Source of the DNA: a virus | Lineage: Duplodnaviria; Heunggongvirae; Uroviricota; Caudoviricetes | IMG/VR virus record: IMGVR_UViG_2721755643_000007 | DNA: 57,277 nucleotides | Strand: one strand, 5' to 3' | Part shown: one piece after another, positions 17,494 through 31,293 of the stretch | How the letters are laid out: each line of letters begins with the position of its first letter | Position numbering within the stretch: position 1 is the stretch's first letter | Made by a program: the position numbers and the translations under genes | The notes under the pieces: model-generated | The model's input: the letters and a program-made list of their open reading frames with translations, nothing else | Told to the model about the DNA's origin: nothing | The model's database searches: none

Positions 17494-18813
17494 TTACACT
17501 GGTGTGTTCAGCAAATCGTTAACGGCATCAGATGCCGGGTTACCTGCAGCCAGTGGTGCCGGTGCCCCCTGCATCAGACGATCCAGCGCAGTGTCACTGC
17601 GCGCCTGTGCACTCTGTGGTGCAGCTGCCAGAATGCGGCGGGCCGTTTCCACGGTCATACCGGGGGTTTCGGCCAGCACACGTGCCTGTTCTTCGCGTCC
17701 GTGAGCTTCCTCACAGTTGAGGATCCCCATAATGCGGCTGTTTTCTGCCGCAACCGCAGCGGTGATCTGCGCGTTCACGTCCGGCTGCGCCGCGCTGGCG
17801 TTTTCGCCCTCCGTCGCTTGCACCACGTCAGTAACGTCAGCCTGCGAAGCAGTGGCTGAAACAGTTGTTGATTGAGTCTCTTTGGTCATTCGCCCTCCTG
17901 AGAGACGGGATTTACGTGCATCCAGTGCATCACGCATAACGGTGATCGCATCGGTGCTGTTGACAAGTTCATCAGCCAGTCCGGCATCAATGGCCTCCTG
18001 ACCGCTGTACACTGCAGCCTCGGTATCCAGCACAGCCTGCACGGACAGGCCGGTATATGCCGACACCTTCTGCGCAAACATCCGGCGGGTTGCATCCATC
18101 CGGGACTGCAGTGTCTCCCGGACATCACCCGGTAGATGGCTGTAGGGGTTGCCATCCACCTTATGGCTGCCGCTGTAAATCAGCGTGATTTCCACGCCCT
18201 GTTTCTCCAGCGCAGCGCCGTAATTACTGTGAGCCATCATGACGCCGATGGAGCCTGTCCGGGCGGTCTGCGTGACCAGACGCCGGGAGGCGGCGCTGGC
18301 AAGCAGCTGACCTGCACTGCAGTTCATGTCGTTGGCCAGCGCCCATACCGGCTTTATGTCACGCACACGGGCGATGATGTCAGCACAGTCAAATGCTCCC
18401 GCCACCATCCCGCCCGGTGTGTCCATATCGAGCAGAATGCCGTCCACCATCGGATCGCTGGCAGCCTGTTGCAGACGAGCGATAATGCCGTTGTAACCGG
18501 TCATTCCCGAATACGGCTGCAGCGCCCGCGTCCGGCTGACCAGCGTACCGGACACCGGCAGCACGGCGATGCCGTTCATGACCTGATAACTGCGGGCCTG
18601 TCGTGGTCCGTCATCATCACCGGATAACGCCAGCGCCGCGGGTGCCTCTCCGGCAGTCAGGCTGTCGCCGGATACTGCATCCGTCAGGCGACTGATCCCA
18701 AGCTGGCCTGCAAGCGCACAAAAGAAAACCCGCGCATAGGCGGGTTCAAGCATCAGCGGCTCATTAAAAGCCATGCTGGCAATATGCGGGAGATTACGCA
18801 GCTCTGCTGTCAC
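17494..18813 (-). CDS. C: capsid protease/scaffold protein C (Nu3 nested in-frame)
   Basis: 439 aa lambda C-like from (V)TAELRNLPHIASMAF; GTG start preceded by AGGAGG; overlaps the end of B by 20 nt. Confidence 0.9.
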   Translation of the reverse strand: MTAELRNLPHIASMAFNEPLMLEPAYARVFFCALAGQLGISRLTDAVSGDSLTAGEAPAALALSGDDDGPRQARSYQVMNGIAVLPVSGTLVSRTRALQPYSGMTGYNGIIARLQQAASDPMVDGILLDMDTPGGMVAGAFDCADIIARVRDIKPVWALANDMNCSAGQLLASAASRRLVTQTARTGSIGVMMAHSNYGAALEKQGVEITLIYSGSHKVDGNPYSHLPGDVRETLQSRMDATRRMFAQKVSAYTGLSVQAVLDTEAAVYSGQEAIDAGLADELVNSTDAITVMRDALDARKSRLSGGRMTKETQSTTVSATASQADVTDVVQATEGENASAAQPDVNAQITAAVAAENSRIMGILNCEEAHGREEQARVLAETPGMTVETARRILAAAPQSAQARSDTALDRLMQGAPAPLAAGNPASDAVNDLLNTPV

Positions 18814-19567
18814 TCTTCTCCTCCTCTGTTGATTGTCGCAGTCCGGATTCAAATGCCGCAGCCGCCCAGGCGGGCGGTTTAAGACCGGCTGCACGGCGCT
18901 CCATCGTTTCACGGACCTGCTGGGCAAAAATTTCCTGATAGTCGTCACCGCGTTTCGCGCACTCTTTCTCGTAGGTGCTCAGTCCGGCTTCTATCAGCAT
19001 CACCGCTTCCTGAACTTCTTTCAGACCATCGATGGCCATACGACCGGAGCCTATCCAGTCGCAGTTCCCCCAGGCACTGCGGGCTTCCTGAAAGCTGAAG
19101 CGCGCTTTTGAAGGTAACGTCACCACGCGGCGAACGATGGCCTCTTCAAGCCAGCACAGAAACATCTGGCTCGCCTGACGGGATGCGACGAATTTTCGCC
19201 GCCCCATAAAGTACGCCCACGACTCGTTCGCACTGGCCCGTGCCGTGGAGTAGCTCATCTGGGCGTAATTCCGGGAAAGCTGCTCATACGAGACACCCAG
19301 CCCGGCAGCGATATACCGCAACAGTGACTGCTCAAACACGGAGTAGCCGTTATCCGTATCCTGAGCCGTCTGCAGGTTCAGTGAGTCCCCCGGCATCAGG
19401 TGCGGCACTTTTGCGCCTCCCAGACGGACCGGTGCTGCGGCGTAATACGCGGCAATTTCACCAATCCAGCCCGTCAGCCTTTCCCGCTGCTCCTGACTGT
19501 TCGCGCCCAGAATAAAATCCATCGCTGACTGCGTATCCAGCTCACTTTCAATGGTGGCGGCATACAT
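18794..19567 (-). pseudogene. B: portal protein B, C-terminal fragment (gene split by the island insertion)
   Basis: 257 aa MYAATIESELDTQSAMDFILGANSQEQ...EEEKSDSRAA matches the C-terminal part of lambda gpB; begins exactly at the insertion junction. Confidence 0.9.
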
Positions 19568-19645
19568 CGCCTTTATGAAAAGACAGGAAAAAATAAAATT
19601 TAAAAACAGTACATTACGAATGCTCAGACCTATCGTTTAAAGGAG

Positions 19646-19670
19646 TCGCAATACACACTGCAATACACGA
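19646..19670. repeat. direct repeats GCAATACAC(A) near the island left end, candidate integrase arm-type sites
   Basis: CGCAATACACA and CTGCAATACACGA in tandem; same motif occurs three times at the right end. Confidence 0.5.
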
Positions 19671-19702
19671 TTATTTATAAGATGAGCGGCATCCGTCATA
19701 AA

Positions 19703-29021: not shown

Positions 29022-30263
29022 TCACACCACCTCTTTATTAAGCTCGATAACGTTGTTGTTAAATCCTGCTATCGTATTAAGGTAATTAACCCACATATTA
29101 AGCACCTCAAGTTTTTTCTTTATATGCCTGCTTTTATTGTAAACACCAGCAACCCCTTTCACTTTATGACCTAAAAGAAGTTCGACAATATAAGGATCCG
29201 CCCCCATATCATTAAGCGTAGTGGAAAATGTGCGCCTGAAATCATGTATGCACCACAAGCCATTAGTATCATGACCAAGACGCCTGCATATTCTGTTTGC
29301 AGCCCCTGTTATTGTCGCCCTTTGCAAAGCACAACCGACAACATAACCGCGATTTTTTGTTTCTGCGTAAAGATTAACGATCCATTGTTTTATTCCGTCA
29401 GGAACAGGCCTTACTATAGCCTCCTTGTTTTTGCTGTGCTCTTTTGGGACTGTCCATACCCAGTTTTTTAAATCCCATTCGTCCCAGGTGGATAGCCTCG
29501 CCTCCTGCTGTCGGCAACCAAACACCAGGCAGATAACCATTATTCTTCGGTTATATATTGATGACAGAGTTAGCAAATTATTACCGTAAGCATAAGACCA
29601 TACATCAGCGGTTTCATTGATATTAAGAACGCGATCCCTTATACCGGATGAGCGCCCGACATAACTTACGTTAATATCTCCAAAGGGATCGCACGCGATG
29701 TATTGCCTGACGCGACAAAAACGCAACGCCTGTTTGATATCAAGAAAAATTGCACCAGACATAACAGGCGCATTTTTTTTGATCCTGTCAAAGACGGTAA
29801 GCCATGTGTGTAATTTGCACTGTTCTATAGCCATATCACCGATATAGGGGAAGATATGCTTTTCAAATCGTTTTATTAAATATTCATGCTCTTTTCTGGC
29901 TGTTGTGGCGTGATTGTCGTACCAGTAAAACAGCGCATCCCTTACGGTCACTGGTTGCATAGTTTTTTCGGCAGCAAGTTTTATTTGCCTGCGGGGGTCC
30001 AGATTTTCAGCCAGCCATTCACGGCACTGATCACGCATGCGCCTGGCCGTTGCAAGAGACATGTCAGGATAGCGACCAAGTGTAAGCCATACCGGAGGGG
30101 ATTCCCTGCCACCAAGACGATAGTAAAAAACAAAGCTGATCCCCCCAACCATGCTTACACGCACAGACAACCCGCGCCCATCCGCTATTGTTTTTTGTTT
30201 GTCCTGCCGTTTTCCGACAAGACTCTTTAACAGTTTGTCACTGAGTTTGTTTTCAATAGCCAT
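29022..30263 (-). CDS. tyrosine integrase (P4-type, with N-terminal arm-binding domain)
   Basis: 413 aa; N-terminal DGRGLSVRV / YRLGG / LGRYPDMSLATAR motifs; C-terminal HDFRRTF ... LLGH ... VYNKS. Confidence 0.9.
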   Translation of the reverse strand: MAIENKLSDKLLKSLVGKRQDKQKTIADGRGLSVRVSMVGGISFVFYYRLGGRESPPVWLTLGRYPDMSLATARRMRDQCREWLAENLDPRRQIKLAAEKTMQPVTVRDALFYWYDNHATTARKEHEYLIKRFEKHIFPYIGDMAIEQCKLHTWLTVFDRIKKNAPVMSGAIFLDIKQALRFCRVRQYIACDPFGDINVSYVGRSSGIRDRVLNINETADVWSYAYGNNLLTLSSIYNRRIMVICLVFGCRQQEARLSTWDEWDLKNWVWTVPKEHSKNKEAIVRPVPDGIKQWIVNLYAETKNRGYVVGCALQRATITGAANRICRRLGHDTNGLWCIHDFRRTFSTTLNDMGADPYIVELLLGHKVKGVAGVYNKSRHIKKKLEVLNMWVNYLNTIAGFNNNVIELNKEVV

Positions 30264-30281
30264 TAAAAGCCCTCAAGAGAT

Positions 30282-30335
30282 TTGCAATACACACCCATCC
30301 CGATCGCCAATTTGCAATACACATTGCAATACACA
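30282..30335. repeat. three direct copies of TTGCAATACACA between int and the right junction, candidate arm-type sites
   Basis: Copies at 30282-30293, 30312-30323 and 30324-30335; same motif as at 19646-19670. Confidence 0.5.
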
Positions 30336-30411
30336 AAACCGCGAAAAACTGGAAGGGTGATGAACGGTCATCAAAAGCATGGAAAACGACATTCCAGACG
30401 CAGCAAGGGTT

Positions 30412-31293
30412 TCAGTGGAGTTGGCGAACGATGCGGGCAACTACGGTGAGATGATAGACATAAATCGCCTTCACAATGGCGCTCTGCAGCTGCGTGTTCT
30501 GCAGCGTGTCGAGCATCTTCATCTGCTCCATCACGCTGTAAAACACATTTGCACCGCGGGTCTGCCCGTCCTCCACGGGTTCAAAAACGTGAATGAACGA
30601 GGCGCGCCCGCCGGGTAACTCACGAGGTATCCATGTCCATTTCTGCGGCATCCAGCCAGGATACCCGTCCTCGCTGACGTAATATCCCAGCGCCGCACCG
30701 CTGTCATTAATCTGCACACCGGCACGGCAGTTCCGGCTGTCGCCGGTATTGTTCGGGTTGCTGATGCGCTTCGGGCTGACCATCCGGAACTGTGTCCGGA
30801 ACAGTCGCGACGGGCTGGTATCCCAGGTGGCCTGAACGAACAGTTCACCGTTAAAGGCGTGCATGGCCACACCTTCCCGAATCATCATGGTAAACGTGCG
30901 TTTTCGCTCAACGTCAATGCAGCAGCAGTCATCCTCGGCAAACTCTTTCCATGCCGCTTCAACCTCGCGGGAAAAGGCACGGGCGTCTTCCTCCCCGATG
31001 CCCAGATAGCGCCAGCTTGGGCGATGACTGAGCCGGAAAAAAGACCCGACGATATGATCCTGATGCAGCTGGATGGCGTTGGCGGCATAGCCGTTATTGC
31101 GTACCAGATCGTCTGCGCGGGCATTGCCACGGGTAAAGTTGGGCAGCAGGGCTGCATCCACACTTTCACCCGGTGGGTTCCACGCCCGCAACTGCCCACC
31201 AAATCCGCTGCCACCGCCGTGATAACCGGCATATTCACGCAGCGATGTCATGCCGTCCGGCCCCAGAAGGGTGGGAATGGTGGACGTTTTCAT
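30412..31293 (-). pseudogene. B: portal protein B, N-terminal fragment (about 277 portal codons plus 16 island-derived codons)
   Basis: [33 protein letters not shown]...QLQSAIVKA matches the lambda gpB N-terminus, then reads IYVYHLTVVARIVRQLH-stop from island sequence. Confidence 0.9.

Follow-up and report, generated by a model that had tools for sequence, protein, structure and literature searches.

A satellite in the portal gene of a lambda-like Escherichia coli prophage is very probably a helper-embedded phage-inducible chromosomal island and encodes a Nu1-family small terminase of its own

The 57,277-nt sequence IMGVR_UViG_2721755643_000007 of the IMG/VR collection, hereafter the window (all coordinates are positions in it), holds a lambda-like prophage of Escherichia coli whose portal gene B is split by a satellite-like unit of 10,898 bp between two att cores; the gene strand of both B and the satellite is the minus strand. 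We are highly confident in assigning this insert to the helper-embedded phage-inducible chromosomal islands (HE-PICIs), site group B:Phage_portal_2:241; it resides in B of a lambda-like prophage at the classical lambda attB (ybhC|ybhB). Over 49,586 bp, the window matches E. coli CFSAN029787 (CP011416.1 / NZ_CP011416.1) with 100% identity, and it is in this genome that the element has been catalogued. Tommasini, Mageeney and Williams (2023, NAR Genom Bioinform 5:lqad036, PMC10111431; cited in PMC11389934) described 491 HE-PICIs at 14 late-gene sites, three of them in B, and their Supplementary File 1 lists HE-PICI Eco2613.11.B_Phage_portal_2_241 at CP011416.1/3698288-3709185, with helper Eco2613.58.PBP|ybhC and identity block aaggcgat. 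These coordinates correspond to window positions 19570-30467, and the attL and attR alignments of the published group, with the same identity block, coincide with the window junctions. The arrangement is biologically interesting, but it belongs to a class published in 2023, this individual copy included. Because the exact locus is in that supplement, the initial annotation, which had read the insert as a helper-dependent satellite in the helper portal gene and had allowed that the category might be known, was right in its interpretation, yet the finding is not new. What goes beyond the published catalog is a full-length private small terminase (TerS) with a diverged cosB in the place where the model island EcCICFT073 has Rpp, and a helper with frameshifted tape-measure and tfa genes.

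The lambda-type portal gene is split at an 8-bp repeat that reads AAGGCGAT on the gene strand and ATCGCCTT on the plus strand. One copy, at the junction of the N-terminal portal part and the satellite (30464-30471, minus strand), equals the published attL of B_Phage_portal_2_241, and the other, at the junction of the satellite and the C-terminal portal part (19566-19573, minus strand), agrees with the published attR; these are the two positions at which a common core had been noted. The 5' fragment of B (30412-31293, minus strand; RefSeq "phage portal protein, missing C-terminus") encodes gpB residues 1-276, ending in ...QLQSAIVKA, followed by foreign codons whose presence had been noticed before but whose number is 17 rather than 16 (IYVYHLTVVARIVRQLH). 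The 3' fragment (18794-19567, minus strand; RefSeq pseudogene "missing N-terminus") starts at the next native residue, an internal Met (MYAATIESELD...), and encodes residues 277-533 to the native C-terminus, which bears out the proposed division of the gene between these two open reading frames (ORFs). Joined computationally over one copy of the core, the two halves give 1602 nt and 533 residues without a stop, as had been anticipated for excision. When this rebuilt empty site is compared with lambda B, the identity is 99.1% at the amino acid and 98.4% at the nucleotide level with zero gaps.

The core corresponds to lambda nt 3658-3665, with the junction after gpB residue 276, and the alignment of lambda to the window is broken exactly there (lambda 1-3670 matches window 34127-30459 and lambda 3658-18002 matches window 19573-5233); away from the insert, the helper late region is 96 to 98% identical to lambda from cos to J. 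Alignment of portal residues 32-400 to positions 2-354 of the Pfam profile Phage_portal_2 places the insertion near profile position 241. The description of the embedding as "in-frame" was not meaningful, the insert truncating B and carrying no replacement sequence. Two features that identify HE-PICIs are thereby found here, namely a disrupted late gene (B) with an attP that brings no replacement sequence, and int, alpA and primase genes on the same (minus) strand as nu1-A-W-B...J. CFSAN029787 has no second lambda-type B gene, and the record contains a single such place.

The gene content, taken from Pfam, PHROGs, and the annotation that RefSeq gives for identical genomes, follows the four ordered zones of PICIs: Integration (Int, AlpA), Bro, Replication (primase, SSB, ori), and Late (captured head and packaging genes). 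Along the gene strand, the order is Int-AlpA-BroN-(YlcI-like, Icd-like)-DUF4222-primase-iterons-SSB-capsid-decoration-helix-turn-helix (HTH)-cos-TerS, and the satellite inventory of the initial annotation (integrase, AlpA, primase with iterons, SSB, small terminase, cos, capsid, and decoration) is confirmed in full. An AlpA-positive, tail-gene-negative content is a further mark of HE-PICIs: no tail gene, including those with the signatures Phage_min_tail or Phage_tail_L, is found in 19574-30463, and the satellite holds no portal, large terminase (TerL), protease, tail, or lysis genes or remnants of them, in line with the absence of portal, TerL, tail, and lysis genes noted earlier.

The integrase (29022-30263, minus strand; 413 residues) carries the Pfam domains Arm-DNA-bind_3 and Phage_integrase. 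It shares 53.6% identity over its full length with the integrase of 11capE, the experimentally induced type element of the HE-PICIs, and 22% with that of P4, and it has no significant match to the lambda-type integrase of the helper. The label "P4-type integrase" is therefore correct for the broad family defined by Arm-DNA-bind_3 but not for any closer kinship. The identity to 11capE Int, together with the listing in the B_Phage_portal_2_241 group, points to membership of the HE-PICI clade, within which integrase subclades track the target site (PMC10111431). AlpA, an excisionase/activator (28763-29020, minus strand; Pfam Phage_AlpA, E 5e-14), is encoded next to int. The doubled HE-PICI motif tgTGTATTGCantgTGTATTGCa is present on both attP arms: a doubled TGTATTGC on the int side (30314-30335, minus strand) has the motif and position described for HE-PICI attP and is a putative Int arm-type site; a second doublet lies on the attR side (19648-19669, minus strand); and a fifth half-site is found at 30284-30291 on the int side of attP. 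From the core center, the half-sites start at -97.5, -85.5, +134.5, and +146.5, with the fifth at +176.5, and agree within 1 to 3 bp with those of 11capE measured alike (-100.5, +133.5, +145.5). TGTATTGC occurs nine times in the window versus 2.2 expected, and five of the nine copies are in the att arms. Published HE-PICIs have the doubled motif once per attP arm, 81 ± 2 upstream and 132 ± 2 downstream (PMC10111431), and the downstream doublet here, starting 132.5 bp from the core center, falls within that range.

The late genes of the element include an E-like major capsid paralog (22166-23206, minus strand; 346 residues from the RefSeq start; Pfam Phage_cap_E; 41% identical to helper E), a D-like head decoration paralog (21815-22156, minus strand; Pfam HDPD; 38% to helper D), and a second AlpA-type HTH protein (21420-21803, minus strand; Pfam Phage_AlpA; phrog_2790). 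The satellite cos core follows (21318-21395, minus strand). The lambda cosN 12-mer GGGCGGCGACCT has exactly two copies in the window, one belonging to the helper (34116-34127, upstream of nu1) and the other to the satellite (21352-21363, upstream of terS). Some 70 bp around cosN are nearly identical in satellite and helper, whereas the cosB side is unrelated, the private cosB of the satellite starting ≈20 bp past the helper-identical cosN. The satellite TerS (20676-21218, minus strand; Pfam Phage_Nu1; phrog_57) is a full-length Nu1-family protein of 180 residues that matches phrog_57 over residues 1-176 (E 5e-51). It is 37% identical to helper Nu1, the figure being 27% for the N-terminal region that binds DNA and 49% for the C-terminal one; its closest phage relative is N15 gp1 (47.6% identity), and none exceeds 48% among 50,697 phage records. 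Searched against PDB sequences, this TerS matched no entry, neither the DNA-binding domain of lambda Nu1 nor RppC, and BLASTP against the 144-residue Rpp of EcCICFT073 gave none at E ≤ 0.01.

A full-length TerS unlike Rpp suggests, from sequence, that the satellite replaces the helper TerS directly instead of hijacking it. Its conserved C-terminal half would let the protein recruit helper gpA directly, leaving helper Nu1 aside, in the manner of TerS replacement by the pathogenicity islands of Staphylococcus aureus (SaPIs) but in a cos system. We therefore put forward tentatively, with a confidence that falls a little short of even, that the B:241 genotype represents an undescribed mode of packaging for cos satellites of lambda-like phages, based on an own full-length Nu1-family TerS and a private cosB and using no Rpp adaptor. 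In the literature searched, nothing specific on Nu1-type TerS in PICIs was found, and the module of private TerS and cosB is not discussed. If this reading is true, portal supply through excision and TerS/cosB together would place both gates of head filling under satellite control.

The location in B further suggests how the two genomes may be coupled. For 11capE, quantitative PCR and deep sequencing after mitomycin C showed that the composite excises and replicates and that precise satellite excision follows ≈1 h later (PMC10111431); experimental demonstration of excision is limited to this related element, and for the window it is the restoration of the reading frame that was computed. By analogy, SOS would be sensed by the helper cI, and the 58-kb composite would leave attB-lambda (ybhC|ybhB) and replicate. 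Late transcription, antiterminated by Q, would then pass nu1-A-W-B' and continue over int-alpA and the remainder of the satellite, and Int and AlpA would cut out a 10.9-kb circle, rebuilding B and bringing the helper down to a packageable ≈47 kb; lambda packaging tolerates only ≈10% extra DNA (PMC10111431). The satellite would replicate from its own primase and iteron ori, its Nu1-family TerS would bind the private cosB and bring helper TerL (gpA) to the shared cosN, and its DNA would be packaged in heads using helper gpB, C/Nu3 (protease/scaffold), W, FII, and tails. Phage-sized capsids enclose the DNA of EcCICFT073, whose capsid and decoration genes are homologous to those here (Fillol-Salom et al. 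2018 and 2019). The likeliest packaged form here would likewise be approximately four genome copies in phage-sized heads: since four copies amount to 43.6 kb (90% of a lambda genome), the simplest expectation is that tetramers fill normal heads, although the E-like protein might alternatively redirect head size. The helper would thereby be delayed and taxed. Under this model the satellite holds the helper portal gene hostage and is replicated and transcribed in cis, while helper head assembly comes to depend on satellite excision.

The element was followed through 5426 complete E. coli genomes. It is present at ≥80% coverage in 53 of them, in which every satellite ORF is intact, as are the two att arms, cos, and ori, with 99 to 100% conservation, and the complete 600-bp attL junction occurs in 62, always with a portal annotated beside an integrase. 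A junction shared by 62 independent complete genomes is neither chance nor an assembly artefact, and both explanations were rejected. The uninterrupted 600-bp attB segment is found in 3117 genomes, and the occupied share of targets is thus small. An exact-match scan with the core and left arm retrieved 25 further contigs (5 metagenome and 20 IMG/VR), all of them attL; portal codons lie upstream in 25 of 25, in at least two nucleotide-diverged alleles that encode the same peptide.

Several points weigh against the explanation given above. Excision, replication, and packaging of the B:241 element are taken from the model and the 11capE experiment, and the authors of PMC10111431 recovered no particles even for 11capE. 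TerS-cosB specificity, TerS-gpA binding, and the roles of the E-like and D-like proteins are assigned by homology only. The upstream arm-site doublet spans -99.5 to -77.5 bp, its distance within that range depending on the measuring convention, and does not literally sit at the published 81 ± 2. The excised attP junction, sought by exact match among contigs of IMG/VR and the JGI metagenomes, gave zero hits, and with 25 of 25 contigs being attL, the sequences offer nothing in support of circles or packaged monomers. The helper itself appears damaged. Compared with lambda H, its tape-measure gene lacks 1 bp of an A-run (AAAA to AAA) near 12240 (lesion region 12200-12260), which splits H into two frames (ORFs 10132-12426 and 12207-12692, minus strand; RefSeq pseudogene); its tfa gene for tail fiber assembly is annotated as frameshifted (1-426, continuing past the left end of the window; NZ_CP011416.1 3728329-3728914); and an IS2 transposase sits in the early/nin region (44819-46047). 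The H deletion, the tfa frameshift, and IS2 mean that the pair may be unable to make infectious particles. The H indel may be genuine or may stem from the assembly, and unless it is the latter, helper and satellite may be unable to form such particles without a second phage.

These points are the substance of the one alternative that we regard as live, if unlikely: that the element is an HE-PICI by descent but that the pair is a stranded relic, no longer transmissible in CFSAN029787, with the split portal a fixed pseudogene. The H, tfa, and IS2 lesions and the lack of attP in public collections (IMG/VR, JGI metagenomes) fit that view, as does the truncated or degraded appearance of many HE-PICI helpers (PMC10111431), with which the CFSAN029787 helper is in keeping. 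It is harder to reconcile with a satellite whose ORFs, att arms, cos, and ori have stayed intact across 53 genomes, or with the annotation of helper cI, O, P, Q, lysis, and head genes as intact. The H lesion, moreover, is a single homopolymer indel, possibly an assembly error, and does not occur in APEC O2-211, where the helper of this same satellite has an intact tape-measure gene; an incoming lambda-like phage could also still rescue the satellite. This alternative bears on the activity of the element and not on its identity as an HE-PICI.

The HE-PICI assignment was also weighed against readings that would alter the identity of the element. An ordinary chromosomal PICI might have landed in the portal gene by accident, HE-PICI integrases being known to make off-target insertions (28 cases in PMC10111431). 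We consider this very improbable, as one and the same site is occupied in 62 complete genomes and 25 of 25 other public sequences, including a diverged portal allele in which only the codons are kept, and as that site is occupied in helpers residing at three chromosomal sites (R, icd, and ybhC), with no chromosomal home site seen. Slightly less credible still is a degraded second prophage nested in the first. Its phage-type head genes (E-like, D-like), TerS, and cos might be cited in favor of this view, but homology searches returned no portal, TerL, protease, tail, or lysis remnants, the finding on which the initial annotation had made its own interpretation depend, and none of the repressor, lysis, portal, TerL, and tail genes of a temperate lambdoid prophage is found in 19574-30463. 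AlpA lies beside an inward-facing int, the four-zone order is that of PICIs, megablast of the satellite against the 50,697 phage records matched only the 66- to 78-bp cos core, and 53 to 62 genomes have the insert as one discrete 10.9-kb unit whose ends are identical. A P4-like satellite or a capsid-forming PICI (cf-PICI) can be dismissed as the most improbable reading, the broad P4-family integrase domain, the primase 40% identical to P4 alpha, the Icd-like gene, and the own capsid gene being outweighed by an Int only 22% identical to that of P4, the lack of sid, delta, psu, epsilon, and Rfam C4/isrK matches, a cosN of lambda and not of P2, and the absence of portal, protease, TerL, and connector genes.

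The Bro and replication zones of the HE-PICI complete its gene map. The Bro-N domain protein (28128-28706, minus strand; Pfam Bro-N; PHROG anti-repressor) is separated from alpA by a GC-rich, terminator-like hairpin with a T-run (28732-28750, minus strand; consensus scan only) that could stop int-alpA transcripts absent antitermination, through P4-like regulation or lambda Q. A consensus scan, which is weak evidence, found no promoter-like site within 200 bp 5' of int. A divergent YlcI/YnfO-family gene (27489-27794, plus strand; RefSeq name; phrog_6522; 89% to its 11capE counterpart) is a candidate regulator, and between it and the replication operon lie palindromes and a promoter-like site (27376-27470) that form a candidate operator; facing these palindromes, the gene may encode the satellite repressor. 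The helper has a YlcI/YnfO-family gene of its own (DUF3950; 34327-34560, plus strand) just upstream of cos; the two proteins are ≈20% identical, and both genes are opposite in strand to the late genes. An Icd-like protein of 65 residues (27101-27298, minus strand; RefSeq name; PHROG repressor-like families) is the only supported part, at the 3' end, of a listed 356-residue ORF (27101-28171, minus strand) that is not in RefSeq, overlaps the YlcI-like gene on the opposite strand, and is probably spurious. Four small ORFs (26193-27108, minus strand), one DUF4222 and three of unknown function, precede the primase/helicase (24442-26196, minus strand; D5_N, DUF5906, Pox_D5), which is 40% identical to the C-terminal part of P4 alpha. 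Just downstream of the primase gene, a cluster of ≈10 GGTAGA/TCTACC iterons (24195-24442) is the putative ori, 10 of the 14 such hexamers in the window falling within these 248 bp; one small unknown ORF separates the iterons from the SSB gene (23424-23846, minus strand; Pfam SSB).

At the other end of the satellite, terS is followed by a conserved hypothetical ORF of 93 residues (20383-20664, minus strand; phrog_1561) and by ≈800 bp of noncoding DNA. Three tandem 54-bp units in this 3' noncoding region (19981-20142) each hold a 13-nt palindrome whose arms vary compensatorily between units (CCTCAAATTGAGG, CCCCCAATGGGGG, CCTGCATTGCAGG); these units have no Rfam match. Noncoding segments near attR (19745-19834 and 19981-20024) are 86% identical to the 3' noncoding end of EcCICFT073, a likeness that persists despite different integrases and att sites and marks a conserved noncoding module. 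Rfam searches gave no match for the whole window at the gathering threshold or for the satellite at E ≤ 1, including the P4-type CI/seqA immunity RNA (C4, isrK) that some HE-PICIs match (PMC10111431), and PADLOC found no defense system among ten satellite proteins (Bro-N, TerS, the second AlpA-type HTH, YlcI-like, Icd-like, and five small unknowns).

The helper genes upstream of and co-oriented with the satellite (31290-34127, minus strand) are cos (cosN 34116-34127), nu1 (33393-33938), A (31493-33418), and W (31290-31496), and the prophage position is marked by ybhC (55994-57277) and a lambda-type Int (54789-55859). In NZ_CP011416.1, a diguanylate cyclase gene comes next after the prophage, ahead of ybhB/bioA. 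The helper is a lambda/DLP12 mosaic in which nohD, essD, rrrD, and quuD gene names accompany lambda-like late genes; IS2 adjoins a DLP12-like block (emrE, 44349-44681; ybcK recombinase, 42567-44093), and a porin gene annotated as ompC but nmpC-like (37838-38920, plus strand) lies between the Q-type antiterminator and the lysis genes, as in DLP12. The porin gene is lysogenic-conversion cargo unrelated to the satellite.

Among known systems, the HE-PICI group B:Phage_portal_2:241 is the same element, with the same 8-bp identity block, attL, attR, and doubled TGTATTGC; PMC10111431 does not discuss the TerS and private cosB of this genotype or the damaged tail genes of its helper. P4 resembles the satellite in size (≈11 kb), integrase superfamily, Vis/AlpA-type excisionase (33%), primase-helicase (40%), iteron ori, and Icd-like gene, but its P2 helper, P2 cos, sid/psu/delta/epsilon genes, CI RNA, and tRNA-gene integration have no counterpart here, tblastn with the hallmark proteins Sid, Psu, Delta, and Epsilon giving nothing below E 0.6. 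A cf-PICI is defined by its own portal, protease/scaffold, TerL, and head-tail connectors, whereas the window satellite has only capsid, decoration, and TerS. The type element 11capE (Eco567.11.E_Phage_cap_E_80, E. coli NRG857c) has the same architecture and a size of ≈11 kb but targets the capsid gene E rather than the portal gene B. The late modules are 91% identical at the nucleotide level over 2.7 kb from ssb to cosN, and protein identities are 67% for AlpA, 98.8% for the capsid, 97% for the decoration, 95% for the HTH, and 89% for the YlcI-like protein, but only 53.6% for Int and 43% for the primase. This homology ends at ≈21331, ≈20 bp past cosN, which places a module boundary at the cos nicking site. 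Beyond it, the cosB of 11capE is helper-like, and an N-terminal remnant of Nu1 and DUF262/HEPN cargo are present but no terS, whereas the window satellite carries a full terS, its cosB is diverged, and no defense cargo is recognized.

Finally, EcCICFT073, the model Gram-negative cos PICI, shares with the window satellite the order int-alpA, primase, capsid-decoration-(small HTH)-cos-(packaging specificity gene)-93-residue ORF, and both have int, alpA, pri-rep with ori, a lambda-type cosN, and a private cosB (identities: capsid 55%, decoration 54%, 93-residue ORF 76%, cos core 86%). EcCICFT073 occupies a chromosomal site next to phoQ, apart from its helper, whereas the window satellite has a portal at attL in 62 of 62 genomes and 25 of 25 contigs. 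Its Rpp is a protein of ≈144 residues that is devoid of a TerL-binding tail and must pair with helper TerS (Fillol-Salom et al. 2018 and 2019), whereas at the corresponding position the window satellite encodes the 180-residue full-length Nu1-family TerS with no detectable similarity to Rpp. SaPIs of the pac type differ in their headful packaging, Gram-positive host, unrelated sequence, and chromosomal att sites, and many of them remodel capsid size; the likeness lies in TerS_S, the small terminase of their own with which they redirect the large terminase of the helper (discussed in Fillol-Salom 2019).

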